A stretch of DNA of 54,426 bases, counting the filler, from Jimgerdemannia flammicorona (Eukaryota), in assembly GCA_003990765.1 (NCBI GenBank). It is 2 parts of 2 records of this genome, joined end to end, with 100 filler letters (N's around TTAATTAATTAA, not from the genome) between each part and the next. Parts side by side here need not be neighbours in the genome. Positions count along the whole stretch, not along the records: positions 1 to 27,176 come from RBNJ01000656.1; 1 more part is not named here. One strand, written 5' to 3'. This document shows positions 1,041 to 52,435 of the stretch, in pieces (position 1 is the stretch's first letter; each line of letters opens with the position of its first letter). The translations under genes were made by a program, and so were the position numbers. The notes below the pieces were generated by a model. It did no database searches and had not been told where the DNA came from. It saw nothing but the letters and a program-made list of their open reading frames with translations.

Positions 1041-1894
1041 TTCACTTTTAATTACTCTGAATATATATTATCTAAAAATTATCTAAATTATTTTTCAGAG
1101 CAGAGTTCAGAGGGTTGAGTTCTGATTCTGAGTAAAGAGTAGGCATCCTTTTCAGTGACAGAGTTGAGTTTTCTATTGTCTACACAGAGTCTCCATCCTT
1201 CTTTCTTTAGTATGATAATTATGGAGCTGGTCCAAGGGCTGGTTGAGGATTGGATGATTCCATTGTCTAAGAGTTCCTGAATTTAATATCTTTAGATGAT
1301 GGGGTATTCTATAGGGTTTCTGCCAAATGGGTGTTACATTTTCTGTATTTATACTATAGTGATATGAAGGGTTGTATGGCAAGTTTCCAAAGTCTGTAGT
1401 TAAGATATCTTGATATTTGTTGAGGAGTTCTACTAATTGTTACATTTGCTAGATTGTCAATTCTTCTCCAATGTTGGTGGAAGGCTTTACTGTCTCCTGG
1501 GTCACAAAGAGGCCTTCTCTTTCTTCTGAGACCTTTTGCTATTTCACAATAGGTTTAGCTTAAAGAATTCTCTGTAGGTTTGGTTGAGGAATGGTACCAA
1601 ATGTCCTATGATGATTCCTTTTGGCAAGATAATGCTCTCCCAACTTTAGTTGGTTGCTTGGAAGTGTACTAGATTCATCTTATCAGGAAATATATGTCCT
1701 TCTATATCCAGATTTGAGATATCTTTATTGAGTTCAAAGAAGATATTTCTGGGGTCGGGTGGTGCAATGATTTCGAAGGTGGTTTGCTCTCCAGGCTCCA
1801 GGATGAGATTGTTGTGTAGTTTGACTGATTGGTAGTATACTTTTTAGAGAACATTCTACTTAAGATGGTTGATCTGAAAGAAATGCACTTTCTT

Positions 1895-2310
1895 TTTATC
1901 TGAGCTTCCAAATTCTTCAGTTTGTCTTATTCCTTCAGTCAGTTTGGAGACTTCTTGTAATTGTGAGGTCTTGACTTTCAAGAAGACTGCTTGGGCAATC
2001 TTCTGTCCTCTCATGATTCAGTACCATTTTATACTACTATTATATAAAATAATCTTGATTTTACCTATATATCCTAGATCGATGATTTCTCCTTCTACAG
2101 TTATTTCTTATCTAGTAAGTCTGACCCTTGAGGTCAGTTGGATATAAGTTCCTTGAGGTGGCTGCATAGCTAGTCTGGTTCTGATTATCAGTATTCTTTC
2201 TGGCTTAATAGGTTCATCCTCCAGACTGTAAAGATTATTTCATATATATATCTTCTTGGTAAGCTTTGGTCAGAAGTTTGACCTTAGAATGTAGCAGGGC
2301 ATACTGGGCA
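1895..2310 (-). pseudogene. dUTPase domain of element A pol
   Basis: Aligns to the element B dUTPase (MQPPQGTYIQLTSR..., IDLGYIGKIK, GQKIAQAVF, FGSSD); contains stops. Confidence 0.8.
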
Positions 2311-3629
2311 AAATCTTTGCAGAGTTCAGCCTGTACTTGAGCTGAGGCTCTACTAGTAAGAAGTCTCTAGACTCTTGGATTGAGGTGCAGCCATCCAGCT
2401 CCAGTAGAGGAATCTTAGAGATAGTTGATTTCTCTCTTTTCAGTAGGGTCTAGGGCTTCTATAAAGTTGGTGGCATCTTCTATCCATCCTTTGTAGGTTG
2501 TATGTCTGATAAGAGCTAGGATGTCTTCTCCCAAATTATAAATCTTAAGGGTCCTTCTTCCTTGCTTCTTGGTTTAGCTTTTTTGGATCTGGTCTCTAAA
2601 ATTTTCTCTCTTCAAAGTGTGAATTGCAATATTCTGGCTGAGATGATTCTTCTGGTGTCTGCAGTCTTGGCAGTCTGGGTGTCTTCTATGGTTGCAATAT
2701 CCTATTGCTCAGAAATGCTATTTCTGGTTATTGATCACTTATTATCTTGGGAATTGGTATCCATTTTGATCATAAGTTAGGGGATGGGTGGCTAAGAGTT
2801 ATACTTCTGTTTATTTAAAGAGACCTTGTTCTCTAAATTGGCTTTGCAACTTAGTGATAACTTCTTGAAAGGTGGTTCACTGTGTAACTGTAGTTGGGGG
2901 TTCTAATCTTCAGAGTCTCTATCTTTCTTATTGGTCTAATAGGTGGCACTTATAGCAGTAGTCTTGAAGAGAGTGGAAGACCATTTGATGTTGACATCTT
3001 CATAGCTGAAAAGCTCTTTCTTAGTATATCTCTTGCTTAGAAATAATGGAGATTATATTGAATCCTTTTTCCATATTCCATGGATCATTATTTTTGAGTG
3101 GTATCCAGGAAGAGTAATCTCAGGAAATAAGTTCAGGAACCTCTTCTTTCTCAGATACTTCTTGTTCAGAAACCTCCTATTCAGGGCTTTTTTTCTCTTC
3201 AGATGATTTTTGATCCTAAATTACTTATACTTCTACACCTTTCACTATAGATGTTTCTGAAATATATCTATATTTCTTCTTCTTCCTTCTGCACTCAGGA
3301 AAGGCTGTACCATGCAAATTCCTTATCCTAATTATCTTGAAGGATTGCTCAGGGCACTTGTATCTCTTGAGGCAGATGGGGCATCCTTTGATTTCTCCTG
3401 CAATGGCTCTAATGGTGATGGGGATAGTGTTCTTATTCTATATATTGTCTTCTGACCTATTATCCACCAGATTGATTTGGGGATTGAGCCTGAGACCATT
3501 TCCATCTTCAGATTCTTCTTTCTTCTCTATGGTAGATTCTTCACTACTGGCATATTTCTTCTAGATAGTGACCTTCTTCATCTTGTTTTATTACTCATAG
3601 CTAGTCACCTTTACTCTGTACTTCTTGTC

Positions 3630-3960
3630 TCAGTAGTCAAACTTAAGTACTTGTTGACTGATATCAATAACTGCATTCATTTCCTTCATCCAGTTGGTGC
3701 TAAGAATCATATCATAGATGACAGCTTTAGTAACAACAGCTTTGAGATTGGAGAACTGAATGTATCTAAGAGAGATAGTGATGTTTCATATATCTCCAAG
3801 GGGTTGGGTTCAGGCTCCATCTGCTACTATGATACTGAGGTTGAATGGTCTATCATTGGGCTATTGGAGGGTATTCAGGAATTATTTAGCAATAATACAG
3901 ATAGCTGCTCCTGTATCTATGAGGATTTTTATCTTTTATCCTCCAATATCTCTATGTATG
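3630..3960 (-). pseudogene. Aspartic protease of element A
   Basis: ILIDTGAAI motif (~3900-3927) and downstream ILSTNWMKEMNAVID. Confidence 0.8.
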
Positions 3961-4168
3961 TAGGAGCTAATATGTCTTTCTGTAGCTTGGATAGAGATGG
4001 GAGCTGGCTCTTACTGTGGGATTGGAACTTGACCAGTACTAGACCTGGTAGTTCTTAGCAATTTATTCCAAACTCTAGCTAGCATTAGTTGCAGAAACTG
4101 CAGGAGAGAAACTTCTATCTTAGCTTTTGGATCTTTTGCCAGACTTTATTATAGATATCTCTAGGCAT

Positions 4169-4171
4169 TCC

Positions 4172-4210
<39 letters not shown>
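4169..4210 (+). mobile_element. Minimal poly(A) retro-insertion (TCCGTT + A36) with 15-bp TSD
   Basis: GATATCTCTAGGCAT at 4154-4168 and 4211-4225. The homologous site in element B (~14734) is empty. Confidence 0.85.
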
Positions 4211-4212
<2 letters not shown>

Positions 4213-6048
4213 TATCTCTAGGCATAGTCTTCAGAGTATACTTCTTCTTGGGCTTTAGGGCAGTAGGTTCTCATTCTTCTGGTTCTATTTCTTCATCCTC
4301 TAGAGACAACTCATTTATCTTATAGACAAAAGATAAGAGAGACCAAGAAGGTATTTCTATTTGCTCCTCTTCATCTTCTTTATCCTCCTCTTGGATTCTT
4401 CTGCTGATATTCCTGGATAGCCTTCCTATAGGTCTCTTCCTTTTCTCTACTGGATAGACTGTCTTTCTGATAGTGACTTTGGCTGGGTACAAATCTAGAT
4501 CACTGTAGTCTTTACTATTGCTTTCTTCTTCAAAATCTTCAACAGGGTGGGCTTCAGTCCTCTTATACTGGGTGTCATTCCTTCAGTTTGATAGTTCTGA
4601 GTCTCTTTGATTACTTCTTTTATTGTCACATTCAGTGGCATAGTGTCTATAGAAGTATTTAACTTGGGATCTATCTCAGACAGAATATCTTCTTTCTTCT
4701 TGCTGGTAGTTTCTATTATCTCTGGGTGAATAACCTTGGCTCCTCTGTGGTGGGTATTCTCTGTTGTCTTGATAACTCTGATTTTTACATATAGTGAGTT
4801 TTTCAATCTGTCTAACCAATTGGTCCAACTTGGAACTGAGGTCTTGAATTTTACTTCTGTCCTTCTTTTCTTCTATGGCTGGTCTTCTTTCTTCTGATCT
4901 CTCCTGTCCTTAAAGGAGTCCTTGCATGGCTTTGACCAGGATGTCTTCTTTATCATCTTTCTTATTATGGTCATTCTAGGTAGCTCTTTGACTGATATTA
5001 CAGAATCCTTGGACTACATCTACTTGCTCTTTGGACCTTCTGATACCTAAGGTACAGATATGCTGGGCAATGTTTGGGAGAATTTCATTCATAAAGGTCA
5101 TTTGACCTATAATATTATTATTAGTAGTACTGAATCCTGCTGTATACATTCTCTTCTAGATTCTTGTAAAGTTCATCTTCATTCCTATGATAGATTCTTG
5201 AGCCTTGTGGCAGGTTTCATTTCCTGCATATTTTTTGATAAGCCAGTAGACCATGGCTATATATTTCAGCTGGTATAATACTACTACCTGTATTTCTACT
5301 AAAAGGTTAGAATGTGGGTCATTTACTACTTAGTGGAAAATTCCTCTAGCCGGTTCTCTGAGCTGGGCCTTATAGATGACAATTTTCCTTTCATCTGAGA
5401 GGTTTCTTAAAGCTGTGATTCCCTCAATTCTATCAAGGAATTCTCTAGGATCTTTCTCTGAATATTCTATACAGATTGGTAATATAGTGGTCATTTTATT
5501 ATCACTTTCTTCTAATTGTGGTTCTGGTCTGGATTCCAATTTCAATTTTGACTCTGATTTACTTTCAGAACTATTACTGGATATAGAGGTACTTAGATAT
5601 CTTGAGGATAGTATTATGGACCTCAGATCAAGTAGAATGAGCCTAGATATTCTTGAAGGAGCTTTTTCCAATCATGCAAGGGCTGCTGATAAAGATTCAA
5701 TGGGTGAGATTGGTGGGACCTCTCTGGGGTATCTAGCTGCTGGATGCTAGGCTTGTGTAATGAGATCTTCTAGTTCTTATGTAAGTTCTTCCAAGTTTTC
5801 AACAGGACTACCTGCATTATTGGTTGGGGATTCTATACTATAATGGCTTCTGATTGAGATTATTCTGATACTATATAGTTGGTAAATCTTGAGGTGATTA
5901 CTTCTCTTTCTGTCCAAATGCTAGTGATAATTAGTTCTCCTATAGTAGCAGAGATTGGTATTATATCAAATATATCCAGTTAGACTATAAGTTCTTATAA
6001 GCTGAAAATTGATATTGATTTTGAAATTTTCTCAGTTGAGCTCTGAAA

Positions 6049-7771: not shown

Positions 7772-9059
7772 TGTAACATACCTGGCTCAATGGAGGCAAA
7801 TTACAAGATTGGGGATTGATGTAGTTTGGCTTGAGCCCCCAGTTACTTTGTCAAAAAGTAACAAAATGTTCTATGATTCTTGAGATTCTTAGTGTTTAGT
7901 GGTATAATAGTCAAAAGCTGGATATCTGCAAGTGATTTCCTTATTGGGATGGTTCTCTGGGTATGGCAACAATTTGTGTGTAAATGGGTTTCCTTCTTGG
8001 GTTAACTGGGAATTGGTGAGATTTGTATAGTATAACAATCTCCAAAAAGTATGCAATTTCTGAGTGATGATATTATGTAGTGTGATGATCTCTGTACATG
8101 ACAGTCTGGTAATTTAGTGGTTCTCCTTCTTGGGTGGTGGGTGATCTTTGTGTAGTGTGACTGGTTCCTTATACAGGATATTTGGGAATTATACTGGTGG
8201 TAGATAACTCAATAACTCAGGCTTACTGGGAATAATGAATAACTGAGATGTTGTGGATTCAGCTTCAACTGGGAATACTACTCAAATGGCATGAGTTCTT
8301 CTGAATCAGGCTCTTCTGGAAATATGATGGCATGGATTTCTGGGAATGCAGATAACTCAAAAGTGGTAGATGATGTAGACTCTTCCTAAATTAGTGACTT
8401 TCTGGGGAATAACTCAGATGGTGCAGATTCTTCTGAATCGATGGCTTCAACTGAGAAATGGTGGCAAAGTTTTTCCTTAAACTTAGATGGCAAATCTTCA
8501 GGCTCATCTGGCAAGTGAACCAAAAATAAACTTATTCTTTGTATCAAAAAGTGGACCAGAGTGGAAAAGAGAACCAATGCTCACAATCTCCTAGTAGTGG
8601 CTTTAGAGTGGGTGTTTCTCCTAAGTATTGCAATCCTTCTTGGATCAAGTGGCTTTTGGCAGATATATCCCTCGAAGTGTAATAGACAGACTTGTCTTTT
8701 GCTTTTTGGATTCAATTTTGGACTGAGGTTTATTCACTCTTGTCTTTGGGGTAATTTGTATAAGTTGGTTGCTATCTGGTTGCTACATGGCTAACTATAG
8801 ATCTGCTACTTATGACAGGTATATAGAGTCTGTATAGTATACAGGTCCTGTACAGTATACAGAGTCTGTATAATATACAGATTCTGTATATATAAACAGA
8901 CCCTATCTGGTATGTCTGGCTAATTATATGTATGATGGCATGAGTAACTATGATATATTGGATGTCATGCTGAGAGCCTACATCATCTGGTTAAGTATGC
9001 CAATTGTTTGTATTATCTAGCAAAGTTATAATTTGGGTAGTATATTTTGGTCTATTACA
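7772..9059 (-). repeat. 3' LTR of element B (1288 bp)
   Basis: TG...CA termini; direct repeat of 22369-23654; about four 18-bp tandem repeats (TATACAGAGTCTGTATAG-like) at ~8820-8895. Confidence 0.92.
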
Positions 9060-9073
9060 TCAGCCCCCACTGA
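9060..9073 (-). other. Polypurine tract of element B
   Basis: AGTGGGGGCTGA on the minus strand, directly before the 3' LTR TG. Confidence 0.6.
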
Positions 9074-9098
9074 AGGATAGTCTGTCTCAGACTGTTCT

Positions 9099-9614
9099 TT
9101 AGTCATCATCTCAATAAGTGTAAGCTACTTCTGCATCTATACCAGTTCCAACATCTTTGTTATCTATACTAGGGTCACTCCATTCTATGGGATCTTCTTC
9201 TTCTTCAAAGAATAGAATTTCAACAGAATTGATGATACTCCAATAGGTAATAGGGTTCATTCCTTAAATGTTATTCAGGGAGAACTATGCCTGTGTCAGA
9301 GTGGTGACATTTTGTTTGTAAATAGTATATAATCTGTCTGCAGTAGTAATGTCTCTTCTGGTCAGACCTATGGTATTCCTGATGTAGGTCTGCTCTGGGG
9401 CTGGAAGGCTCTGTAATTATTCACCAATTGCATAATAGGCCTGCAGTTGGTGGACTTGTAGTAGATGTCTGGCCAGGGTGAGATTTTCTTAGTGAACTTA
9501 GATCTTCTGAAGGGAGTTTCCATTGGCTTGACTGAATTGAGGTATAGGAACTGGTAGAGCCTGAAAGGAGCTGAGGACCAATTTCTGGAGGCACTGATCA
9601 ATCCTTTGACTCAT
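9099..9614 (-). pseudogene. Extra 3' ORF (env position) of element B, ~170 codons, unknown function
   Basis: Not in the ORF track. Manual translation MSQRIDQCLQKLV...QLQAYYAIGE*L...LTRRDITTADRLYTIY...EEEEDPIEW. No frameshift; five internal TAA/TAG stops, each restorable to Gln; the ATG overlaps the integrase stop (ATGA, 9611-9614). Confidence 0.65.
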
Positions 9615-10620
9615 AGTGTAGGGAGAAGATATAGTTTGAGGTGATTGACATATACTAGTATTCTCAGGGTTTGTCCATCCATGCTTCTTAAATAGATGCT
9701 GGTTCCTCTAATGTTGTGTATAAGATAAGGTCCTTCCCATTTGGGTTCCAGTTTGGCAGCAAAATTCATTTCAATCATACTTCTCCAAATTAGTACTTGA
9801 TCTCCAATCTTGATCTTCTGATCCTTTTGTCTTTGGTTATAGTACTTCTTTTATCTTTCTTGGGCTTTGATAATCTGTCCTTGGGCTTGATTATGTAGCT
9901 GTTCTGCCTTCTTGAGGAGGTCTCTAAGATTCTCATGGTCAGCAGTTCTGGTTTTCTTAGCAAACATCATTTCGAATGGCTTTTGTTTGGTGAAGGCAGC
10001 AGGGGTGTTCTGAATTTCCCATAGAATCTCAGGTAAGCAGAGGCCCAAGTAGTAGAATTGACTTGAGCAAGTCCTTTCTTAATGGTCTGATTCATTCTCT
10101 CTGTTATACCATTGGTCTGAGGGTGGTATGATGTGGTCCTTTTGAGGTGGATCTTGTGAATTTGGGCATAACTTGTGATTATGTTATTGATGAATTCCAT
10201 GCCTCAGTCAGAGATAAGTTCTTCTAAAGGTCCATATCTGAGTGTGAGTCTATGGAGGAGGCCTACAATAATTATGGCATCTGTAATTTCCATTGGAAAA
10301 GCCTTGGGCCACTTGGTCAGATGTTCTACAAATATAAGGATATATTTGTTTCTTCTTGGTGTAACTGATTGAGGTCCAATTACATCTACTCCCCATCTCT
10401 GAAAGATGTTGTCTGGTGGTATGATAGGATACAATGGTGCTTGATGTTCTTCTTTTCTTGGTACTTCTGGCAGGTGTCATATTTCTTGAGTATGTCTCAG
10501 ACTTGTGTTTTGAGATTGGGCCAATGTTGGTGTATTGTTTGCAACTTCTCTTCTATGTTTGCTTGTCTCTGATGAGCTTTCTGATGTTCTTTCCAGATGA
10601 GGTCTTCTTGAGCCTTGATT
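9611..10620 (-). pseudogene. Integrase of element B
   Basis: HHCC-type N-terminus, RWGVDVIGP, ELISD, YHPQTNGITERMNQT, LEPKWEGPY, ending VNHLKLY..PTL*. No chromodomain. Confidence 0.9.
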
Positions 10621-10689: not shown

Positions 10690-11900
10690 AAGAACATCAA
10701 CATTGTTGTGGGCTTTCTCTGCTTTGTAAATGATGGTGATTTTGTAATCCTAAAGGATAAGGATCTAGTAGGCTAGGATTCTGGTACATTCTTTGTAGTT
10801 GAATAGCCATTTGAGGGCTGTATGGTGTGAACCTTTTTCCAATGAGGTAATGCTTGAACGGAGTGACCACCCATATGACTGCAAGGCATTCCAGTTTGGT
10901 ACTACCATAGTTTATCTGCTGCTGATTGGTAGCTCTGCTTGTATAAGCTATCATATAGTGCTGTTGATTGGGTCCTTCTTGGGCCAGAACTGCTCCTAGG
11001 CCATCTTTGGAAGTATCTGTATACAGGATGAATGGCTTTTGTAGATTGGGGTGTATAAGGATTGATGCTGTAGTCATACAGTTCTTGAGTTCTCTGAAGG
11101 CTTTTTCTTGTGTTTCTGTCTATTTGAATGGCACTCCTTTCTTGAGAAGGATTCAGATTGGAGCAGCAATTTGGGTAAAGTCTTTGATGAACCTTCTGTA
11201 GTAGGATACTAGCATTAGGAATGATAGTGTTACCTTTGGGGTTTTAGATACCGGCCAATTATTGATCTTCTTGGTTTTCTTTGGGTCTGCATGGGTTTCT
11301 TCTTTTGAAACTATGAATCCCAGGAAATCAAGTTTCTGTTTCCCAAAGTAGCATTTCTTTGCATTCAATCTCAAGTGGTTCTTGCAGGTAAGCTTGAAGA
11401 ATTCCTCCAGGTAGTGCAGGTGTTCTTCGAAATTTGCTGAATAGATGTTGGAATCATCCATGTATACAATCAGATAGTGGTGGACTAAAGGAGCATAGAC
11501 TGAATTCATCATCCTCTGGAAGGTGAGGGGTGTATTGCAAAGTCCAAAGGATATTTGGAGATATTCAAACAGTTTTCCTAGAGTAAGGAAGGCTGTCTTT
11601 TGAATGTCTTTGGAGTCCATGGGGATCTCATGGAATCCTGTGAAGAGGTCCATACTGCTGAAGTATCTGGCATCTTATAACTGGTCCAAAAGGTCATTGA
11701 TTCTGGGCAAAGGATAGGCATCTTTTTCAGTGACTGAATTGAGTTTCCAGTAATCCACACAAAGTCTCCATCCTTCTTTCTTTGGTATAATAAGTATAGG
11801 GCTGGCCCAAGGGCTGGTAGATAGTCGGATGACACCATTGTCTAAGTGTTCTTGGATATGCTCTTTTTGAATGTTTTCAGGTAATGGGGTATTCTATAGA
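10690..11900 (-). pseudogene. Reverse transcriptase and RNase H of element B
   Basis: DLFTGFHEI, KTAF, FGLCNTPLTFQR, YMDD, YYRRFIKDF; RH motifs FILYTDTSKDGLGAVL and NYGSTKLECLAVIW; stops present. Confidence 0.92.
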
Positions 11901-12479
11901 GTTTCTGCTGGTTGGGTACTGCATTTTCTGTATTTATGCTGTGGTGATATGATGGGTTGTATGGCAGGTTGCCATAATCAGTGGTGAAGATATCTTGATA
12001 TTTGTTGAGAAGTTCTACTACTTGTTGCTGTTGTTGGGGTGTCAATTCTTCTCCAATATTGGTGGAAGGCTTCACTGTCTCCCGGGTCGCAGAGGGGTCT
12101 TTCCTTTCTTCTGAGACCTTTTGCTGTTTCTCAATAGGTTTAGTTCATAAACTTCTCTATGAGTTCGGTTGAGAAAAGGTACCAGATGTCCTATGATGGT
12201 TCCTTTTGGCAGGATGATAGTCTCCCAACTTTGGTTGGTCACTTGGGAGTGTACTGGATTCATCTTGTCAGGGAATGTGTGTCCCTCTATGTCCAGATGT
12301 GGGATATCTTCCTTGGGTTCAAAGAAAAGGTTCCTGGGGTCAGGTGGTGTAAATATTTCGAAGATAGTTTGTTCTCCAGGCTCCAGGATAAGATTCTTAT
12401 GCAGTCTGACTGGTTGCTAGTATACTTGCTGGAGAGCATTTCTCTTGAGGTGGTTGACTTGAAGGAGATGTACTTCCTT

Positions 12480-12890
12480 CCTATCTGAACTTCCAAATTA
12501 CTTGGCTTGTCATATTCCTTCAGTTAGTTCAGAGACTTCTTGTAACTGTGGGGTCTTGACCTTCATGAAGACTGCTTGGGCAATCTTCTGTCCTCTAATG
12601 ATTTGGTGCCATTCTGCACTGCTGTTGTGTAGGATAACCTTGATTTCACCTATATATCCTGGGTCAATGGTTCTTCCTTCCACAGTTATTCCTTGTCTGG
12701 CATATCCAGACCTTGAGGTCAGTTGGATGTAAGATCCTTGAGGTGGCTGCATGGCTAATCTGGTTCTAATCATGAAGGTTTTTCCAGGTTTGATAGATTC
12801 ATTCTCCAGACTGTGAAGATCATACCCTACATCTTCTGGGTGGGCTTTGGTCAGGGGTTTGGCCTTGGGGTACAGTAGGGCATACTGGGC
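12480..12890 (-). pseudogene. dUTPase domain of element B (between PR spacer and RT)
   Basis: Motifs VGYDL, SRSG, TIDPGYIGEIK, GQKIAQ, FGSS. Confidence 0.88.
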
Positions 12891-14199
12891 AATATCCTTG
12901 CTGAGTTTGGGCTTCCCTAAGGCTGAAGCTCCACTAGCAGAGAGCCTCCAAGCTCTGAGGTTGAGGTATGGCCATCTGGCTCCAGTGGAAGGGTATGGAG
13001 GTAGTTAATTCCCCTTCTTCCTGTAGGGTCTAGGGCTTCCATGAAGTTGGTGGCATCTTCTGCTCATTCTTGGTGAGTTGCATGTCTGATGAGAGCTAGG
13101 ATGTCTTCTCCCAAATCATAAATCTTGAGAATCCTTTTTCCTGGCTTTTTGATCTGGCTTTTTTGGATCTGGCTCTAGTTATCTCCTTTCTTCAAAGTAT
13201 GGATTGCAATATCATGACTGAGATGAATCTTCTGATGTTTGCAGTCTCAGCAGTTGGAATGTCTTCTATGGTTGCAATATCCTATTACTTGGAAATAATG
13301 TTCTCAGTTATTGATCTCTTGTTGCCTTGGGAATCAGTACCCATCTTGATCATAAGTGGGTGAAAGAGTAGACAAGGGATATATTTCTGTCTAGGTGAAG
13401 AAGCCTTGCCCTCTGAATTGTCTTTGCAACTTGGTAGTGACTTCTTGAAAGATAGTTGACTATACAAGTCTATTCAGGGGTTCTGGTCTCTGGGGTCTCT
13501 GTCTCTCCTGTTGGTCTAGTAAATGGCACTGATAGCAGTAGTCTCAGGGAGAGTAAAAGACCATTTGGTGTGGGCATCTTCCTAGCCAAAAAGCTTTTTC
13601 TTGATGAGTTTCTTTCTTGGGGATAATGGTGATTGTACTGAGTCCTTCTTCTGTATTCCAAGGATCATTGTCTTCAAGTGGTGTCCAGTGAGGGTCATCC
13701 CAGGGAATGAGTTCAGGGACCTCTTCTTCTTCAAGTGCTTCTTGTTCAAGAACTTCCCAGTCAGAAGTTTCTTCTTCCTCAGATGATTCTTAACTACAAA
13801 TCACTTGTATTTCTGTAGCTTCAGCTACAGGTGTTTCTGGGACATGTCTGCATTTCTTCTTCTTCTTTCTACACTCTGGGCAGGCTGTGCCAGGCGATTT
13901 CCTTATTCCCATGATCTTGGAGGAGTGCTCAGGACACTTGTGTCTCTTGAGACAGGTAGGGCATCCTTTGGCTTCTCCTGCAATAGCTCCAATGGTGATA
14001 GGGATGGTGTTCTTGGCCCACACATTGTCTTCTGGTCTGTCATCCACTAGGTTAATTTGGGGATTGAGTCTGGGATCATTTCCATCTTCAGATTCTTCTT
14101 TCTCTTCTGTAGTAGACTCCTCACTACTGGCATATTCTTCCTAAATAGTGACCTTCTTCTTCTTTTTTAATTGTTCATAGCTAGGTACCTTAACTCTAT

Positions 14200-14540
14200 A
14201 CTTCTTGCCTTAGTAGTCAAACTTGAGTACCTGTTGACTGATGTCAACAACTGCATTCATTTCCTTCATCCAGTTGGTTCCAAGAATTATATCATAGGTG
14301 ACAGCTTCAGTGACAATAGCTTTTGGGATAGAGAACTGAATGTGTCCCAGGGAGATGGTAATATTTTGTACTTCTCCAAGGGGTTGAGTTTGGGCTCTAT
14401 CTGCCACTATGATGCTGAGGTTGGATGGGCCATCAATGGGTCATTGGAGGGTGTCCAGGAACTATTTGGCAATGACACAGACAGCTGCTCCTGTGTCTAT
14501 GAGAATCTTCAACTTTTGTCCTCTAATATCTCTGTATAAG
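14200..14540 (-). pseudogene. Aspartic protease of element B
   Basis: LIDTGAAVS and DIILGTNWM. Confidence 0.88.
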
Positions 14541-16216
14541 TAGGTGCTAATATGTCTTTCCATGGCCTGAATAGGAATGGAAGCTGGTTCTTGCTATGGG
14601 ATGAGAACTCAGCCAGTGCTAGACCTGGTGGTTCTTAGCAATTTGTTTCAGACTCTAGCTGGTGTCAGTTGCAGAAACTGCAGGAGGGGGACTTCCATCT
14701 TGGCCTCTTGAATCTTCTACCAGGCTTCATTATAGATACCTCTAGGTATGGTCTTTGGGGTGTACTTCTTCTTGGGCTTTAGAGCAGCAGGTTCCCATTC
14801 TTTTTGTTCCATTTCTTCATCTTCTAGTGATAACTCATTTGTCTCAGGAACAAAAGGGGAGGGGGTTCAGTGAGGTATTTCTACCTGTGCCTCTTCATGT
14901 TCTTCATCCTCCTCTTGGATAATTCTTCTGCTGATGTTTCTGGATGGCCTTCCTCCAGATCTCTTCCTCTTCTCTGCTGGGTAGACTGTTTTTTGGATGG
15001 TAACTTTGGTATGATATAAGTCTAGGTCACTATAGTCTTCACTATTACTGGCTTCCTCGAAATCTTCAACAGGATGAGCTTCTGTCCTCTCGTACTGAGT
15101 GTCATTCCTTCAGTTTGGTGGTTCTGAATCCCTTTGGTCACTTCTTTTATTGTCACATTCAGTGGCATAGTATCTGAATTGCCCACAGTAGAAGCATTGG
15201 ACTTGGGCTCTGTCTCAGACAGAGTACCTTCTTTCTTCCTGCTGATAATTCCTATTATCTATTGGTGGATAACCTTGGTTCCTCTGTGGTGGGTGTCCTC
15301 TGTTGTCTTGGTAGCCCCAATTTTTGTATATGGTAAGTTTTTCAATCTGTCCAACCAATCAGTCCAATTTGGAGGTAAGGTCTTAGATTTTGCTTCTGTC
15401 CTTCTTTCCTTCCTTGCCTGGCCTTCTTTCTTCAGATCTTTCTTGCTCTTAAAGGAGTCCTTGTAGGTTTTAGACCAGGATGTCTTCTTTATCTTCTTTC
15501 TTATCATGATCACTCCAGATAGTTCCTTGTCTAACATCTAAGAATCCTTGGGCTGCATCTACTTACTCTTCAGACCTTCTAATGCCTAGAGTGCAGACAT
15601 ACTGAGCAATGTTTGGGGGAATTCCATTCATGAAGATCATTGGACCTATGATATCCTGATTGGTGACATTAAACCTGGCAGCATACATTCTCTTCTGGAT
15701 TCTTGTGAAGAAGGCTCTGAGTGATTCTCCAAGATTCATCTTCATCCCTATGATGGATTCCTGAGCCTTGTGGTGGGTTTCATTTCCTGCATACTTTTCA
15801 ACGAGCCAGTGGACCATGGCCTCATATTCTAACTCATAAGGCATTGCTGCTTATATCTGTCTTACCAGTTCTGAATCTGGGTTGTTTGCTGTTTAATGGA
15901 AAATTCCTCTGACTGGTTCTCTGAGCTGAGCCTTGTGGATGGTGATTTTTCTTTCATCCAAGAGATTTCTCAAGGCTGTGATTCCTTCAATTCAATTATG
16001 GAATTCTCTGGGATCTTCCTCCAGATATCCTCCAAAGGTTGGCAATGAGGTGGCCATTTCATCATCACTTTCGTCTGATTCTGATTCACTTTCTGAGCTA
16101 TAACTGGAGATAGGGGTGCTTGGGTATCTTGAGGATGGTGTTCTGGACCTTGGACTCTTGGACTGCCCTTTATTACCGAAGTCTATAGTGTTAACAATAT
16201 AATGTCACCAACCTCC

Positions 16217-19200
16217 TCAACCAATGCCCCGGGGGCCCAACCCCCCTCTCTCAACCTTCCCCTGCCCAAGCACCACCCGATTGCCCACCACCTGAACCCT
16301 CCCATCACTCTTCTGGGAGATACACTGCACCAAACCCCTGTAGTACCCCCCACCCATACCCCAACCCCACCACCAGCTATTTAAAATGTCCAACAGCAGC
16401 CATTCCCACTGTGCCACCTTTTCACCAACCCCAACCTGACACCTGTCCTCAAATACATGCACCCAATGCCCCGCCAACCCAACCCACATAGCCAAGGCCC
16501 AACCAAGGATCAGCCATTCATCCCCGACCCCCCCCACTAAACGCTGGCGAAGCTCTCCCCATCTCCCCCCTCCCTCCCCTCCTTCAGTCCCCAACCCTAA
16601 CCTATCCCTTACACCTCTCCAAAACTCCCCCAAAACCTCACACTCGCCAAGCCAATGTTCAGGCATTTGTACCACTCCCCCCTCCTGACTGATATTGAAA
16701 CAATCCTCGCACTCGAATACCCCACTGGCCACCAAGTGACCAGACCGATAATTCAGCATCACATTCCGCCATAGGATTCGCCACCATGCCAACCAGAACT
16801 TGGGGGGCAGCCACTGCCTCACCTGTCTGCTCCAAAGCCAGAGCCCATTCCAATCCCATTCTTCCCTGATTCCAACCCTCTGCCAGGCTTCAGGCCACAG
16901 GTCTCCACCTAGGCCTCGCAGGCACTCCAGGCCCTCGCCAAGCTGAAAGTCCTCCACCAGAACACCGCCCACTAGAAGCCTGTCCCATCTCCACATCTGC
17001 GGTCCCCAAACCTCCTCGGCCTCGTCGCCTCGCCACCGAAGGCTGATTTTCCTAGCACCTTCCACTGCTCCCCACCAAAAGCCAGTAAACCGCATCTTCC
17101 GGCTCCCTTCCATGGCCACCATTGCGAGCAGATCGCCGGAGCCACCACGTGGGGAGTATCGAACCTCCCACAACCTCTGCATGAGTGGCACCCACTCCTG
17201 ACCTTGAAGCTCACTTGCCCTCCTTAGCCACCAGGCCCTCAGACATAAAAGCCGCTTATTAAAGTCCACTAAGCCCAGTCCACCTCATTCCAAAGGCAGT
17301 GTGAGCACCTCCCAACCAACCTGGCTCTGCCGCCCTCCCCAAATCCACGACCTCGCCATCTTCAACAACCCCTTAACCACCTACAGTGAGAAATCCAAGT
17401 GGTATCCAACATACCACAGCTTTGGCATCCAGTACACATTCAACACCATCACCCTTCCAGCAAGGGACATATGCCAGCCTCCCCATTGCATCAAGACATC
17501 ACCCTACTCCAGCAGTTTACGGTCCCACCATGCCCGGGGGAGAAGAGACCCGAACACTGAGAAGTAGATCCCCAAGTAGCGCACTGGATCACCAGCTGGA
17601 ACCACCATTCCAATAATATCACCACTTACAATTCCAGCACCCAGCACCATCATTTCACATTTGTGCCAGTTCAATTTAGCACCAGAACCCCGCTCATACC
17701 ATTCCACCGTCCTCTGCAGCTCTCCCACATCCCCCAAGGAACCCAGTCCGACCACCATGTCATCGGCAAAGGCCCCAACCTTCCAGTTCACCCCCAAAAT
17801 GTCCAATCCTCCAATCTTATGCCGAATCCTGTCCAGTAGTGGCTCTAGGGAAAGGGCATACAATATGGGTGACAAGGGGTCCCCTTGTGGCACCCCTTGG
17901 CCCAGGGGGAAGGTCACCCCCCGGTGGCCATTGATGACCAATGCCACCTGACTGTCCTCCAAGAGGCTAATCAACGAACCTCGGAACCCCGGGGGGATAC
18001 CAATCCGCTTCAGCACTCCCTGCAGCCATATTCTCCGCACTCTATCATAAGCCTTCTCCTGGTCCAGAAATACCAATCTGCCATCCACCCCTATAGCCCG
18101 GGTACCTTCAATCACCCCATGAACCCAGGCCATCCCATCTCGAATCAACCGGCCACTGACAAACCCACATTGCTCCAAACCAAGCATCTGCTGTGCGATC
18201 CCTTGCAACTGCAGCACCAAGATCTTCGTCACCAGTTTGCGGTCCATGTTCAGAAGCATGATTGGCCTCCAGTTCTTCCAATCCTCCCTCCTGCCCTTGT
18301 TCTTATACAGCAAGGAGACCAGCCCCAAGCGCTGTCCCCCAATCCAGGCACCAGACTGGAGAACTTCATCACACATAGCCACCATTTCTTCTAGTACCTC
18401 ATGCACCCCCGTCATCTTCTGCCAAAAATCCCAGGGGAGTCCATCTTCTCCTGGGGCTGTCCCTTTACTCGTAGAGGCCACCACCTTGCGAATCTCCTCG
18501 CTACCCACTGGGTCCCCCAATGCCATAAGTCCCAAGGCAGGGTCCGGGTGCCAATCCTCCAGCTGCCTTTCAATGTCCAGAGCATCCAGTCCCCCTTCCT
18601 GCTCACTCTAAAGGTTTCCCCACCGGGTTCGCAATAGGCCCAGAATCGCCAGAGTCCCCACCACCAGCTCGCCATCCTCATCCAAAACTCCCTCCCACCG
18701 CTGCCTCGTTCGTCATACCTGTAGCAGCCGTGACAAGAACCTGGTAGGTCTCTCCCCTTCCTCAAGCCCCTGCCATCACAAGCGGGCCACCATCCCCTGT
18801 AACTGCTCCTCTTCCTCCCTCCGTAGTACCCCTTTAAGCTCCTCCACCTCCTGCCGCATCCTCGCAATTCGCCAATCAGCCTCGGCCCTATCCTCCAGCA
18901 CACCAGCCCATCGCTCCATGAGCCCTGCCAAGCGCCGCGATGCCCACATCACCCGCCGCCTTCGCTGAGCACTCTTTCCTTTTCCCACTTCCCGCCAATA
19001 CCCCTGAGCCTTTATCTTCAACCTTCTCCAGCAGTCTCCAATTGCCAGCCCTTGATCCTGCCACCTGCCGACAGCGCCAACCACCTCTGCTTCCCAACCC
19101 TCCCACAATGCCCTATCCTCCAAAAAGGAAGAATTTATCCGCCAATGTCCAGGCCCATCCTCATTTCCCCCAAACCTCCCCCCTCCAAGTAAACCCCAGT

Positions 19201-19879
19201 GATCAGACCATGGACACCACATGACTCCCAGCACTGTCCAGACATCTGCTCCCCAACACTCTGCTGTTAGAACCCAGTCAATCCTAGAGCCCAGTCCTGC
19301 TGCCCAATGAGTATACACCTGCCGGTCAGCCCAAAAATATCTCCCTGAGTCTACTAAAGAACACAACCTTTCCATCTCCAACCAGTCCACCTATCCACCA
19401 CTTTCACCTCACATGCCTCTCTCTCCATCAGTTTTGTCCAACTCCTTATCCCATACCATGTTGAAGTCTCCCCCCATACAGTCAAACCCAACTTCCCCCA
19501 ATAAACCAGTCTCCTTCAATCAGCGAATCCAATCCACCCTCTCCCCTCTCTCAGCCGGGCAGTAACAAGACCCAACCATCAGCGAGCCCCATCCAGGCCT
19601 CTTCCATACTCTCAACACCACCCGAGACCCCCAATGTCCAATGTCCCCAATGTCCCCCATCCCTTTCCGAACAAGAATACCGACTTTCCCCCTCCAAACT
19701 GCTGCACCCCCCCATTCCTTAGTCCAATTCTGTAAGTCCACATCTGCATCATACCAAACATCCTGTAACAAGAAGAGGTCCGCATCCAGACCCCAAAGCC
19801 AGCCAAAGATGAACTTCCTCCTAGCTGCCCCCCGTAACCCATTAATGTTCAGTGAGAATATCCTAGTTGTACTGTTCAT
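16217..19879 (-). pseudogene. LINE ORF2: APE endonuclease, RT, C-terminal CCHC
   Basis: SLNINGL, GDFN, SRIDW, SDH; PGEDGLP, NWRPIMLLN, LDQEKAYDRV, GVPQGDPLSP, FADD; CEDC...EHWLGEC. Broken by a few stops/frameshifts. Confidence 0.92.
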
Positions 19880-19910
19880 ATTGAGTAGATATTGTAAAAG
19901 AGACCTTAAC

Positions 19911-21838
19911 CTATAATTCCATGCTCATCTCATCCCTCGCCAAGTCCAAGAGCCGCTCTGCTTCCACTTCACCCTCCACAATATCCCGTGCATCCAGTGC
20001 CCCCAAGATTTCCTGACACTCCACCCTGTCCACCTCCTCCATATCTGCCCTGTAATCCAAGCAAACTGCACGCCACTTCTCTAGTCCCTTCCTCGAGTTC
20101 CACAAGACAAGTGCCCTGTCACTCACAATCCTTCTAAGCTCCTCCTCTCGCTGATCATCAACCTGATACTCGACTGACTCCAGGAGGACAGCCAGGATCT
20201 CATTTCTCATCTTCCTCGGCACCTCTTCCCTGCATAGAATCTCCTCCCAATGCCTCTCCTCCATCACCCTGAAGTCCTCACCCCCCAACTCTTTGGCCGC
20301 TACCCCTTCCAGGGTCTTCCACATCCACTTCTCTTCATCTACCGCCTCCGCCACCCCCTGAGCAATTCATCCCCCATCCACCTCGGGGTCCACCAGTGCG
20401 CTCCTCCTCCCTGACTCATCCCACTCCTCATCCGGCACATCCATCAGCTCCTCCTCATCGCCCGCCCCATTTGGGACACTATACTGAGGGTGCCCACCTT
20501 CTCCCATTTCGGCATCCACCTCCAAGTGATCCTCCCTCCGCTCCCCGACCCCAATCCCAGCCCCGCCCTGGGCCATCTCTCCCCCTTCAGACCAGGCGCT
20601 CTCCTGTAGCCCTGCAGTCCCTTCCCCGGAGCTTCCACCAGCCCTACCCCCGCCCAACGTTGCCAACAACTCCTTCTGAATCTTCCTCCCCTGCATCTTC
20701 TCCCAGGCCCCCTTCGCCATCCGAACCTTCTTCCCATCCACCTCCCCCACTACCGTCCTGGCCTCAAACTCCATCCAGGCTGATCTCCTCCTCGCAACTG
20801 CCCCTTCCAGGTCCTCCAGAGCCTCCAACAGGTCCTCCTCCTCCTCCTGAGTCCCCTTTATCCTAGTGACCTTACACTCCACCGGTCCCCACCTCAGCGC
20901 TGCTGGCCAGTCCCTCGACTTCCCCATATTCTCCTTTCCAGCCCGTCTCACCCTGACATCGACATCCCCAGTTCTAAGCTCTGTGCCCTCCCAGACCTTA
21001 AACCCAACATCCACAATCTCGCCATACTCCTTGATCGCCTCCACAACCAACTCCCTGGTCCTTTCCTTCGACACTGTAGGGAGGTCCAACACCGTCAACT
21101 GCACCACCCGGGGGTCCCAGCACATACACCGGGCCATAGGGACCACAACCCCGCCAACCATCACCCCCTTCTCCATGGCTGCCAACAAGGCGTCTTCCTC
21201 CTCAAACCCCACCTCAACCCCTTCCTTTCCCCTCAAGAACTTCACCGACACCGCTCCCTTAGCCTCCTGCGCCACCAGCCCCAGAATCATCCTCGCTGTC
21301 ACTGCCAAGCCCTGGAAGCACATCGTGACTGCGAATTCGGACCTTGACTTCTTGAGTAACGGGGCCGACACCATGCCCGTCACCCCATCCGCCAGGTCCC
21401 CGGGCCTCGTGCCCACTCCAAGTCCCGAATTGCTAACTGCTGTCACATCTGGATTTTTGCCAGATTCCCAGTCACAGCCCCATCAACAGTCACATCTCCA
21501 GCCCCTACTCCGGCCCCTTCCCTACCACCAGAAGTACCCTGAGGTGCACCTCCCTGACCCCCAGCAGTAGCCATCAATGCCTTCCCCAGGCCCAGCCAAC
21601 CATCCAGCCCAGAGGCCATCTTCCCTATCCTGACCTTGTCAGCAAAGGTTGACCTCTCCCCTCCTCTCTGCCTCAGACCTCCCCTCCCTCCACTGCTGGG
21701 GCCTCGGCTAGCCATCGAGGCCCCTGGCATCTCCAAACCATCTCCCCTCCTCTCCACCTGCTGCCAGCCAAAGGCACCGTCACCCCCCTGGCCAGTACGC
21801 TCACCAGATCGATCATTGCCGTCCGTGTTGTTAGTCAT
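19911..21838 (-). pseudogene. LINE ORF1, copy 1
   Basis: Three ORF-track pieces (21443-21838, 20367-21446, 19911-20354) are colinear with the intact 638-aa ORF1 of copy 2; one frameshift and one TGA. Confidence 0.88.
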
Positions 21839-22354
21839 CAGACACCAAAAACGTTGTAAAAAGTGTTGTCCGAGTCTTGTGTCACCCGAATGTTACTGGT
21901 GAAAAGGCGTGTTCCTCGTTCTGGACCTTGGATGAAGTGAGATAAGTCTAGGTATTCTTGTGGGAGCTACTTCTAACTCTACAAGGGGTTGTGGTAAAGG
22001 TTCTATTAGTGAAATTGGTGGAACTGGTATGGGGCATCTGGCTGTAAGGTCTCAGGTTCATATAATAAAATCTTCTTGTTCTTGTGCAAGTTCTTTGAAA
22101 TCTCTAGCAGGACTGTCTGTATTGTCTGGTTGATTTGGTTGGGGATTTCGGGCTATACTACCTTCTGGTTCTGGTTGGGATCCTTCTAATACTGGGTAGT
22201 TGGCAAGTCTTAATATGATTACTTCTCTTTCTATCCAGATGCTGGTAACAACTGGTTCTCCTGTAGTGGCAGAGGTTGGTATTGTATCAAATATATCCAG
22301 TTTGACTGTGGGTTCTTGTGAGCTGAAAAGTTACATCAATTTGAAATCTTTCCA

Positions 22355-22368: not shown

Positions 22369-23654
22369 TGTAATGTGCCTGACTTAACAGAGACAAATTA
22401 CAAGATTGGAGGTTGATGTAGTTTGGCTTGAGCCCCCAGTTACTTTGTCAAAAAGTAACAAAATGTTCTATAATTCCTAAGGTCCTTGGTGTTGAGTGGT
22501 ATAATAGTCAAAAGCTGGATATCTGTGAGTGATTTCCTTATTGAGATGGTTCTCTGGGTGTAGCAATGATTTGTGTGTAAATGGGTTTCCTTCTTGGGTT
22601 AACTGAGAATTGGTGATATTTGTATAGTGTGAAAATCTCCAAAAGTATATAATTTCTAGGTGATGATCTTGTGTAGTGCAACAATCTCTATACATGATAG
22701 TCTGGTAATTTAGCAGTTCTCATTCTTTGGTGGTGGGCGATCTTTGTGTAGCACAACCAGTTTCTTATGCAGGACATTTGGGAATTATACTGGCAGTGGA
22801 TAACTCGATAACTCAGACTCACTGGGAATAACAAATAACTCAGATGTTGTGGATTTGGCTTCAACTGAGAATACTACTCAAATGGCACAAGTTCTTCCAA
22901 ATTGGACTCTTCGGGATATATGATGGCATGGATTTCTGAGAATGTGGATAACTCAAAAGCAGTTGATGATATGGACTCTTCCTAAATCAGTGGCTTTCTG
23001 GGAAATAACTTGGATGGTGTGGATTCTTCTGAATTGATGGCTTCAACTGGGAAATGGTGGCAAAGTTCTTCCTTGAACTTAGGCAGCAAATCTTCAGGCT
23101 GATCTGGCAAGCAAACTAAAAATGAACTTGTTCTTTGTATTGGAAAGTGGACCAGAGTGGAAAAGAAAACCAATGCTCATAATCTTCTAGTAGTGGCTTT
23201 AGAGTAGGCATTTCTCCTAAGTGTTGCAATCCTTCCTAGATCAAGTGGCTTTTTGCAGGTATATCTCTTGAAGTGTAATAGGCAGACTTGTCTTTTGCTT
23301 TTTGGATTCAATTTCGGACTGAGGTTTATTCACTCTTGTCTCTGGGGTAATTTATATAAGTTGGTTGCTATCTGGTTGCTATGTGGCTAACTATAGATCT
23401 ACTACTTATAGCAGATGTATAGAGTCTGTATAGTATATAGGTCCTGTTTAGTATACAGAGTCTATATGGTGTACAGGGTCTATATAGGTAAACAGACCCA
23501 TCTGGTATGTCTGGCTAATTATAAGTATGGTGACATGAGTAACTATGATATACTGGATGTCATGCTGGGAGCCTACATCATCTGATTAAGTATGCCAATT
23601 GTTTGCATCATCTAGCTAAGTTATAATTCAGATGGTATGTTTTGGTCTGTTACA
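22369..23654 (-). repeat. 5' LTR of element B (1286 bp)
   Basis: Direct repeat of 7772-9059; TGTAA...TTACA. Confidence 0.92.
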
Positions 23655-23940
23655 ATATATATATGACATATGTATATATATTTCTTATCTGTAAACAATA
23701 AAGTCTTAGATATATATAAAGAATTTAAAGTAATTATAGAGAATGAAACAGAATGTAGAATATATACTATATACTCAAATAATAGATATAAATATATTAA
23801 TAGTATATTCAAGCAGTACTAAGAAAATATAGTATATATCCTCTATTGAAATATCTTAGTTATAGTAACTCAATATTTGATGATATAGTTGCAGTCTAAT
23901 TATATTATTATATAAATATTTTTAATATATAAAGTATATA
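23655..23940 (+). pseudogene. Ty1/Copia integrase relic, part 2 (continues 7234-7771)
   Basis: VLDIYKEFK..ENETECRI..IYSNNRYKY, cf. FKxxxENxxGxxIxxIRSDNGxEY. Confidence 0.65.
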
Positions 23941-24119
23941 AGATATTAATAAACAATTACTACTTCTCTCTATCTATCTTCCAAGTATTCTATACAAATA
24001 TTATAAGCTCTACTAGTGAAAGCTGATAACAATAAAGACACTTCTCCAATATATAAGCTATACTATATAAAGAAGATATTACATCAATTAAATGTATCAA
24101 ATCTAAGTTTGCTAAGTAA

Positions 24120-27176: not shown

Positions 27177-27276
27177 NNNNNNNNNNNNNNNNNNNNNNNN
27201 NNNNNNNNNNNNNNNNNNNNTTAATTAATTAANNNNNNNNNNNNNNNNNNNNNNNNNNNNNNNNNNNNNNNNNNNN
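27177..27276. other. Assembly gap with artificial linker (N44-TTAATTAATTAA-N44)
   Basis: Symmetric 100-bp block containing a six-frame stop spacer. Confidence 0.95.
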
Positions 27277-41267: not shown

Positions 41268-41270
41268 ACT

Positions 41271-41282
41271 TAGTAGTAGCAG
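41271..41282 (+). other. Decayed tRNA-iMet-type PBS of element C
   Basis: TAGTAGTAGCAG is the element D PBS TGGTAGCAGCAG with two transitions; lies 3 nt after the LTR. Confidence 0.6.
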
Positions 41283-41299
41283 TTTACAATTTAATTCTG

Positions 41300-44200: not shown

Positions 44201-44520
44201 AAGGATACCACAACTTCAAACTGCCAAGATGAAAAGAACCCACTCAGCTTTAGTAACCCTAGACTAAAGATCACCCATATTAATAAGTTACAGCTTAGGA
44301 AATTGGTCAAGAAATGACCTCTCTTTGCCATCTCTATCCACCCATCCAAAGGAAAAACCAACAACTCTGAAGAAGACTTTTCCAAAGTTGACAGCCATGT
44401 TAGACCCCTACTCCAGAAAGTCTGAGATATATTTCTAAACCAAACTACAGAACTATCTGCATCTGTCATTATTAATAACCAAGAAGAATACAAAGTTGAA
44501 CAAATCCTAAACAAATATAG
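41300..44520 (+). pseudogene. Element C gag-dUTPase-protease-chromodomain stub
   Basis: Knuckle YFYCQKTGYMASAC (~43121-43162); dUTPase AAGYDL, GGVIDEDYTGEI, IAQI, KGFGSS (~43250-43650); PR IMIDSSASGNFI (~43908-43944); EEYKVEQIL (~44483-44510). Confidence 0.82.
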
Positions 44521-44592
44521 CCATAAGAATCATTCAAATAGTATAACAATACTAGATCAAATTAGAAGATCTCAATAAGAACATTGATAGCT

Positions 44593-44605
44593 AAGAAGGA
44601 GAGAG
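44593..44605 (+). other. Polypurine tract of element C
   Basis: AAGAAGGAGAGAG, 1 nt before the 3' LTR. Confidence 0.75.
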
Positions 44606-44606
44606 T

Positions 44607-47209: not shown

Positions 47210-47221
47210 TCTCCCCCTCCT
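47210..47221 (-). other. Polypurine tract of element D
   Basis: AGGAGGGGGAGA abutting the LTR. Confidence 0.85.
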
Positions 47222-51263: not shown

Positions 51264-51281
51264 ACCAATGGCTCCTTCTGA

Positions 51282-52367: not shown

Positions 52368-52421
52368 AGTGTTATGACTGATATCTTGAGAGGTGTCTTG
52401 ATAAGGCGAGGTGTAACTTCA

Positions 52422-52433: not shown

Positions 52434-52435
52434 AG

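Follow-up and report, generated by a model that had tools for sequence, protein, structure and literature searches.

Accessory genes distinguish complex retroviruses from simple retrotransposons; to our knowledge, very few have been described outside animals and plants, and almost none of these has a known role. The systems closest to the one reported here occur in long terminal repeat (LTR) retrotransposons and in viruses. Plants provide well-documented cases of additional open reading frames (ORFs) located after pol on the sense strand (PMC7264820). For fungi, a figure legend in the survey of Gypsy elements by Novikova et al. (2010, PMC2864245) names an 'additional ORF with unknown function', and dUTPase is reported there in fungal elements. 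The Gypsy element Cer1 of C. elegans encodes CERV, a 517-residue protein that is produced from a spliced mRNA and regulates the export of genomic RNA (PMC10309623), and LTR retrotransposons of bdelloid rotifers carry varied ORF3s common to different lineages (Rodriguez et al. 2017, PMC5408684). Translation by termination-reinitiation is described for calicivirus VP2, influenza B BM2 and ORF B of the hypovirus CHV1 (PMC10275272), and coupled translation via a stop-start overlap for the non-LTR retrotransposon SART1 (PMC2699510). Here we describe ORF-B, the decayed copy of a small accessory gene in a Ty3/Gypsy element (Gypsy B) of Jimgerdemannia flammicorona (assembly GCA_003990765.1), together with ORF-E, its possible relative inside an LTR. 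Both lie in a 54,426-nucleotide stretch of DNA, hereafter the window, which joins two parts of two records.

ORF-B and its relatives

ORF-B runs on the minus strand from 9614 to 9099 and spans 172 codons, the terminal TAA occupying positions 9099–9101. Frame reading and homologs identify it as the decayed copy of an accessory gene of 171–172 residues. It begins at an ATGA (9611–9614, minus strand), where the ORF-B ATG and the integrase TGA stop (9611–9613) have three bases in common, and its reading frame is −1 relative to that of integrase. The preceding C-terminal piece of integrase (9611–9850, minus strand) contains a GPY/F-type module (..KLEPKWEGPYLI..VNHLKLY..), ends at the TGA and gives a weak match to MLVIN_C (E=0.0064). 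On the other side, a 39-nt spacer (9060–9098, minus strand) terminates in a G-run (..AGTGGGGGCTGA), the presumed polypurine tract, directly after which the 3′ LTR begins with TGTAAT, 39 nt past the ORF-B stop; the boundary between spacer and LTR was taken from the comparison of the LTR pair. ORF-B leaves no other room between integrase and the polypurine tract. Its place is that of additional ORFs, in sense orientation after pol and ahead of the polypurine tract and 3′ LTR.

Relatives of ORF-B were found by several routes. A word-index search, in which the query was the ORF-B frame read through with X at stops, returned six proteins at E<=0.1, two of which are full length (171 and 172 residues; 68% identity, 99% query coverage). 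These intact relatives occur in metagenome data, and no frameshift separates the window copy from them across 171 residues. A profile search of 1.84 billion representatives yielded six matches at E<=0.001, all 65 to 168 residues long, and none is therefore fused to Pol. One of them, P0011 (168 residues, E=6.7e-6), is a distant member of the family and, used as a bridge query, matched nothing besides itself. Overall, the family consists of three DNA copies, 11 database proteins (P0002–P0010, P0012 and P0013) and the distant P0011. The DNA copies are the window copy and two short loci, L001 (1569 bp) and L002 (2297 bp), detected in a scan of metagenome contigs; scans of viral contigs with either the ORF-B or the ORF-E alignment gave no match. 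As in the window, integrase lies directly upstream of the ORF in L001 and L002. Every one of the DNA copies has the ATGA, notwithstanding a 3-nt indel immediately before it, and identity of the ORF-B DNA across lineages is only 60–71%.

The ratio of non-synonymous to synonymous differences (pN/pS) was calculated for the three pairs of DNA copies. It is 0.23, 0.37 and 0.32 in the ORF-B frame, and ranges from 0.70 to 2.46 in the two shifted frames. Differences between the window and L001 amount to 0.31, 0.12 and 0.55 at the first, second and third codon positions, respectively. L001 and L002 (compared over L001:1216–1569 and L002:1790–2297) share 92–100% identity across pol and the initial ~45 nt of ORF-B, after which identity falls to 53–78%. 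This sharp drop marks a recombination breakpoint inside ORF-B, and the 3′ module has therefore been exchanged between lineages, presumably along with the LTR. Because of this mosaicism, the three-copy pN/pS values mix different histories, and are used as a frame-specific signal only.

ORF-B is almost certainly a real gene, conserved and under purifying selection, as the intact relatives, the frame-specific signal and the conserved ATGA start strongly indicate. The first-pass annotation of the window had proposed a hidden accessory gene in the env slot, in a frame of about 170 codons that is free of frameshifts and starts with an ATG overlapping the integrase stop; all of these points stand, and the selection test that it called for gave values below 1 in the frame. 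Its account of the internal stops was correct for five of them, all TAA or TAG (codons 39, 42, 66, 110 and 117), but there is a sixth, a TGA at codon 168. Database homologs have Gln opposite all five TAA/TAG codons, in line with the Gln origin that the annotation had proposed for them, and Trp opposite the TGA. Contigs of a soil DNA run, in which 2433 short contigs of the element family were placed over 30 of 30 bins, feature CAA at codon 42 in five of five cases. The ten best-supported in-ORF differences in this run, taken from a longer list with 681 further rows, include six synonymous changes, three non-synonymous changes and one change from a stop to Gln. The window copy of ORF-B is dead, through six nonsense changes of the transition type. 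Repeat-induced point mutation (RIP) was considered as the source of the stops and rejected; Gypsy B is not RIP-like (TpA/ApT 0.70; (CpA+TpG)/(ApC+GpT) 1.55), and the changes are therefore described only as transitions.

Two explanations would deny ORF-B the status of an element gene. In one, it is a chance frame in the non-coding 3′ region of the element. The stop count of the window copy, taken alone, is unremarkable (7 stops in 172 codons, compared with 10.4±3.1 in 5000 shuffles; P(<=7)=0.17), and a plus-strand frame across the same stretch likewise has only 7 stops. Chance, however, would not account for intact homologs of 171–172 residues, for a pN/pS signal specific to the ORF-B frame, or for the alignment of all six nonsense codons to Gln or Trp, and we regard this explanation as next to impossible. 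In the other, ORF-B is a fragment of a host gene transduced by a few copies. Transduced ORFs are known in LTR retrotransposons (PMC7264820), but ORF-B is found in lineages whose copies are 60–71% identical, always directly after integrase and with the same ATGA, and no longer or stand-alone cellular relative appeared among the 1.84 billion representatives, making such a capture very improbable. Taken jointly, two statements are probable: ORF-B is a true third gene ('additional ORF') of a Ty3/Gypsy lineage that has a dUTPase but no chromodomain, and it is a separate cistron. The conservation across many lineages seen in additional ORFs is found here as well, in three DNA copies with a low in-frame pN/pS and in the database proteins.

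Expression and possible role of the ORF-B protein

ORF-B would be translated from the genomic RNA by termination-reinitiation at the AUGA, in an amount proportional to Pol. We give this route an even chance. The overlap of stop and start codons, which are out of frame with each other, is kept in the window, L001 and L002, and no slippery heptamer lies in the integrase phase. A conserved four-base overlap of this kind is characteristic of termination-reinitiation, and the stop-start reinitiation suggested in the first-pass annotation agrees with these observations; RNA folding near the overlap gave no significant structure, as detailed below. Of the eight database proteins that include the N-terminus, seven begin at the ORF-B Met and one, P0005, does not. 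On the minus strand, the ORF-B frame is open upstream of the ATG over integrase codons (9615–9740), with an ATG at −126 inside the conserved KWEGPY codons from which P0005 is called; a longer, overlapping form is therefore possible.

Several observations weigh against the picture of a selected third gene expressed by reinitiation. Selection was measured on three DNA copies only, two of which (L001 and L002) are mosaics with a breakpoint ~45 nt into the ORF. The predicted P0005 protein begins 41 residues further upstream in the ORF-B frame, and an alternative start is therefore possible. Folds of 130 nt around the ATGA have z values of 0.64, −0.62 and −1.64, none of which is significant (three sequences, too few for covariation), and the sole UGGGA is found 125 nt upstream, within the conserved KWEGPY codons. 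Among the sequencing runs listed as carrying ORF-B sequence there is one soil DNA run and no RNA run; the case for reinitiation comes from the ATGA. The two AlphaFold models of the protein have low confidence, and the proposed function draws on composition and motifs, the searches of Pfam, PDB, folds and the Atlas being empty.

Two other modes of expression have to be set against reinitiation. ORF-B might be a C-terminal domain of Pol, produced by −1 ribosomal frameshifting near the end of integrase. The gene is indeed in the −1 frame, and no stop interrupts this frame ahead of the ATG over 32 codons (window), 21 codons (L002), 8 codons (L001) and at least 41 codons (P0005). Yet no X XXY YYZ heptamer in integrase phase occurs within 200 nt upstream in any of the three copies (one CCCAAAT in the window is in a phase other than that of integrase), all three retain an ATG at the end of integrase in spite of the adjacent indel, and no long fused form is present among the six matches of the profile search, which had no length limit. 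Such a fusion is improbable; a separate cistron is favoured by the lack of an in-phase heptamer, the lack of fused profile matches and the start of seven of eight proteins at the Met. A separate ORF-B gene could also be expressed from a spliced or subgenomic mRNA, the ATGA overlap reflecting mere tight packing. Splicing yields the mRNAs for the additional ORFs of retroviruses and of Cer1 (PMC10309623), and no reinitiation-promoting RNA structure was detected around the ATGA; with no significant structure and the UGGGA far upstream, a spliced mRNA is a serious rival. It has to contend with an exact four-base overlap that is kept across lineages whose ORF-B DNA is only 60–71% identical, and with the coupled translation that such overlaps mediate in fungal RNA viruses (PMC10275272) and SART1 (PMC2699510), and we consider it possible but on the unlikely side.

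Intact ORF-B proteins begin with a helix, after which come a Pro-rich linker (LPxPLP) and a long helix ending in Q-L-x-x-Y-Y-x-I-G. Residues 1–135 form a mildly basic (isoelectric point 8.9–9.6), Gln/Leu-rich helical domain, whereas the last 36–37 residues include 15–18 Asp/Glu and no Lys/Arg. This tail features the motif P-[ILV]-[EV]-W-[SC], then G-x-G-[IV]-D-A-x-x-A-Y-x-x-W-D-D-D at the C-terminus. The motif, with both Trp positions, is found in five of the five sequences that reach the tail, a count in which TGA or X at the Trp column of two decayed copies is taken as kept. Two AlphaFold models (mean predicted local distance difference test, pLDDT, 53.0 and 54.4) share the same layout and are all-helical with a disordered tail; helices are predicted at residues 2–18, 34–69, 72–81 and 86–100, with short helices up to 134 and disorder beyond. 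The Atlas model of P0002 is more confident (predicted template modelling score, pTM, 0.68; pLDDT 0.76).

No known family accommodates this protein. Pfam searches with ORF-B, its homologs, P0011 and ORF-E gave nothing at or near the cut-offs, and the best match to the ORF-B profile among PDB sequences has E=0.21. A fold search of 48,161 PDB representatives peaked at Z 4.5, with none at Z>=5; because the model is helical and of low confidence, this value is meaningless. The best Atlas structure match to P0002 has a template modelling (TM) score of 0.37, and feature matches are only to unnamed or unrelated clusters. On these comparisons, ORF-B represents a new family, outside every known one, and the match to a characterised domain that the first-pass annotation named as the test of its novelty was found in none of Pfam, PDB sequences and the fold search. 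That annotation had also held the product to lack a transmembrane stretch and not to be env-like. Both views are upheld: the highest Kyte-Doolittle mean over 19 residues is 0.94–1.17 in three intact homologs, and, given the low hydropathy and the lack of a Pfam family, the signal peptide, transmembrane anchor and fusion-protein family typical of Env were not found.

Acidic stretches with Trp can serve as activation domains or docking motifs. By analogy, ORF-B may be a small adaptor or regulator, in which the helical domain would bind the element's nucleic acid or a protein and the acidic-aromatic tail would recruit a host factor. A role similar to that of a transactivator or of an RNA-export regulator, the two taken jointly, is tentatively ranked first, though at well below even odds. 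Integration targeting in place of a chromodomain ranks second and is rather unlikely.

The latter role is brought to mind by the place of the gene. Chromodomains steer integration, and a sister dUTPase Gypsy element (46804–52838, minus strand) has one directly after integrase (47535–47687, minus strand; PF00385, E=5.8e-14), where Gypsy B has ORF-B. The shared slot suggests, but does not show, a related task. The Chromo family (PF00385) had no match at E<=1 in three frames of 9060–9614, while the same test was positive in the sister element. A chromodomain relic within ORF-B (VEILF..EWSDP resembling VEKIL..TWEP) was considered and rejected, since none of the frames matches Pfam and the predicted structure of the stretch is helical or disordered. 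The sister element retains an intact 662-residue dUTPase-protease-RT-RNase H frame at 49293–51281 (RT, reverse transcriptase); its LTR matches span only 406 nt (46804–47209 and 52433–52838, 94% identical).

ORF-E and the surrounding elements

ORF-E (25981–27078, plus strand) consists of 365 codons from a Met at 25981, one of them an internal stop, and is uninterrupted over 323 codons from 26107. The first ~130–175 residues are the part that may be distantly related to ORF-B and are followed by a long acidic extension rich in Tyr and Pro. One database relative was found, 64% identical and with the same C-terminal end, and the best Atlas feature score is 0.86. ORF-E lies in an LTR-like stretch, LTR E (25692–27176, plus strand), of which the first 53 nt and the last ~150 nt match an LTR pair at 39808–41270 and 44607–46077. 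The pair flanks a plus-strand gag-dUTPase-protease remnant and keeps only the last ~17 codons of an E-like frame (40530–40580). These nearest relatives in the window flank a Gypsy element that, like Gypsy B, has a dUTPase, and the first-pass label of LTR E as unrelated is therefore not entirely apt. Thus, as far as the matches indicate, LTR E is LTR-like, carries ORF-E in sense orientation and belongs to a lineage that is not unrelated to Gypsy B. ORF-E would be located in the U3-side part of the LTR and hence, like ORF-B, 3′ of pol in the genomic RNA.

The first-pass annotation had also aligned ORF-B and ORF-E by eye as homologs. This part of its account is suggestive only, the comparisons pointing in both directions. 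With a hidden Markov model (HMM) that includes P0011, ORF-E is the best non-self match among 1038 window pieces (10.5 bits, E=0.019; next match 7.0 bits), and the resulting alignment is collinear, residues 4–131 of ORF-B pairing with residues 4–128 of ORF-E. None of 3000 shuffles of ORF-E reaches the 10.5-bit score. ORF-E also scores above its shuffles against every member tested: z is 4.55 with P0008 (3 of 2000 shuffles reaching the score), 3.73 with P0011 (15), 2.59 with P0003 (42) and 2.40 with P0002 (59). Moreover, ORF-B, P0011 and ORF-E have the same order of features, i.e., an N-terminal helix, a Pro-rich linker, Q-[LI]-x-x-Y-[YF]-x-I-G (at about residues 56–65) and, later, an acidic region. 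On balance, these comparisons tip slightly towards the view that ORF-E, in the U3-side part of a related LTR, begins with the ORF-B domain.

The two proteins might instead be unrelated, their collinear resemblance being due to convergence or composition, and we hold the chance of this to be substantial, if a little short of even. The pairwise shuffle test between ORF-B and ORF-E gives z values of 1.4–2.7, tblastn finds no match at E<=10, and an HMM built from ORF-B sequences only assigns 5.0 bits to ORF-E (E=0.92, same 1038 window pieces). The probability returned by hhalign is only 1–7% (P=0.005–0.018), no E-like protein was found in the profile search of 1.84 billion representatives, and the Met from which the alignment starts was picked in the first-pass annotation among three in-frame Mets. 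In addition, shuffles overstate significance because helical periodicity is lost in shuffling. Against a coincidence stand the top rank of ORF-E with the P0011-inclusive HMM, an alignment that is collinear from residue 4, and the shuffle results with every member tested.

The internal region of Gypsy B (9060 to ~16100, minus strand) is followed on the 5′ side by a nested, GC-rich, RT-bearing insert (16558–21911, minus strand) that interrupts the element. The 3′ LTR (7772–9059, minus strand) is 87.6% identical to the 5′ LTR (22369–23654, minus strand), with which it forms the LTR pair. The polyprotein is split among many frames; its dUTPase domain (12510–13004, minus strand; PF00692, E=1.1e-21) precedes the protease. 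A second copy of the Gypsy B family is found at 1123–5524 (79% identical to 11698–16087), without the integrase end and ORF-B, and the first 1100 bases of the window have a GC content of 19%. The region at 23655–25600 is AT-rich (24% GC), shows weak matches to copia gag and Pol beta-barrel, and has RIP-like dinucleotide indices (TpA/ApT 1.09; (CpA+TpG)/(ApC+GpT) 0.98).

The GC-rich (52–57%), RT-bearing unit of ~5.35 kb (minus strand) occurs once inside Gypsy B (16558–21911) and again at 27277–39355, where about two and a half copies, 85–90% identical, are arranged head to tail. Most of its long frames are without a Pfam match, and the tandem layout is unusual for an element similar to long interspersed nuclear elements. 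Runs of N at 27177–27220 and 27233–27276 lie directly past LTR E, and consequently its 3′ end and the junction with the GC-rich array are unreadable. The element with the LTR pair related to LTR E (39808–46374, plus strand) has 1463-bp LTRs that are 87.6% identical and enclose only 3.3 kb, the part from RT to integrase being missing; the last ~297 bp of this LTR are tandemly repeated at 46078–46374.

Comparison with known accessory genes

If the most inclusive interpretation is taken, ORF-B and ORF-E would belong to an undescribed accessory family common to dUTPase Gypsy lineages of the fungal type. The family would have replaced the chromodomain, be expressed by reinitiation at AUGA, be mobile through recombination, occupy either the ORF-B or the U3 (ORF-E) site, and recruit a host factor through its Trp-containing tail. 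In this broad form, ORF-E would be a family member extended by a long acidic domain inside U3, as are nef and sag, and the factor bound by the tail would act in transcription, RNA export or targeting, making the element dependent on it. We regard the complete set of claims as doubtful. ORF-B itself is clearly selected, its small size makes it tractable, and its sharply conserved tail motif lends itself to mutation. Through its AUGA junction, coupled translation could be tested in an LTR retrotransposon. Should the relationship with ORF-E be true, it would show how a gene can cross the LTR boundary, a step toward LTR-encoded genes.

ORFs inside or overlapping the U3 of retroviral LTRs are exemplified by sag of mouse mammary tumour virus and nef of human immunodeficiency virus. 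ORF-E resembles them as a sense-oriented ORF within an LTR; in the genomic RNA it would lie 3′ of pol as ORF-B does, these two differing only in where the LTR boundary falls. ORF-E has no sequence relationship to sag or nef, and its own assignment to U3 is deduced from its place in the LTR. The chromodomain of chromoviral integrases (PF00385) occupies the same slot as ORF-B, directly past the end of a GPY/F-type integrase. In contrast, ORF-B is in another frame, is helical and has no family match.

Among stop-start cistrons, those described in viruses and in SART1 have an out-of-frame AUGA or UAAUG where a long preceding ORF comes to its 3′ end, as does ORF-B (PMC10275272, PMC2699510). The known cases, however, need an upstream TURBS (termination upstream ribosome-binding site), a pseudoknot or a downstream structure, none of which was detected around the ORF-B ATGA. 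In the available parts of the literature on fungal additional ORFs and on reinitiation in LTR retrotransposons, no description of the ORF-B protein or of a stop-start junction between pol and an additional ORF was found, although a figure of the fungal survey may depict an ORF in this slot (PMC2864245).

The dUTPase-carrying Gypsy-like elements of rotifers resemble Gypsy B in having a third ORF and no chromodomain (PMC5408684). Their ORF3s are enzymes (GDSL esterase, DEDDy exonuclease) or env-like, unlike ORF-B, and their dUTPase is located between protease and RT, whereas that of Gypsy B lies before the protease. This order and the chromodomain of the sister element suit fungal elements better than those of rotifers. 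CERV, which has no relatives beyond its host group, is a non-env protein that a Ty3/Gypsy element encodes at the env position, and ORF-B is placed likewise (PMC10309623). Only the C-terminal half of CERV lies in the env slot, whereas ORF-B (171 residues) abuts the pol stop; the likeness is one of position and kind only, by description and not by sequence. With the additional ORFs described in plants and fungi, ORF-B shares the position from integrase to the polypurine tract, the strand and the conservation across copies; it differs in having neither env-like or transmembrane features nor a relative in a named family, and in a start that overlaps the pol stop (PMC7264820, PMC2864245). As an additional ORF after pol, ORF-B is of a known kind, while the protein family is new. 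What sets ORF-B apart is its AUGA junction, its location where a relative has the chromodomain, and the possibility that an LTR harbours a related ORF.

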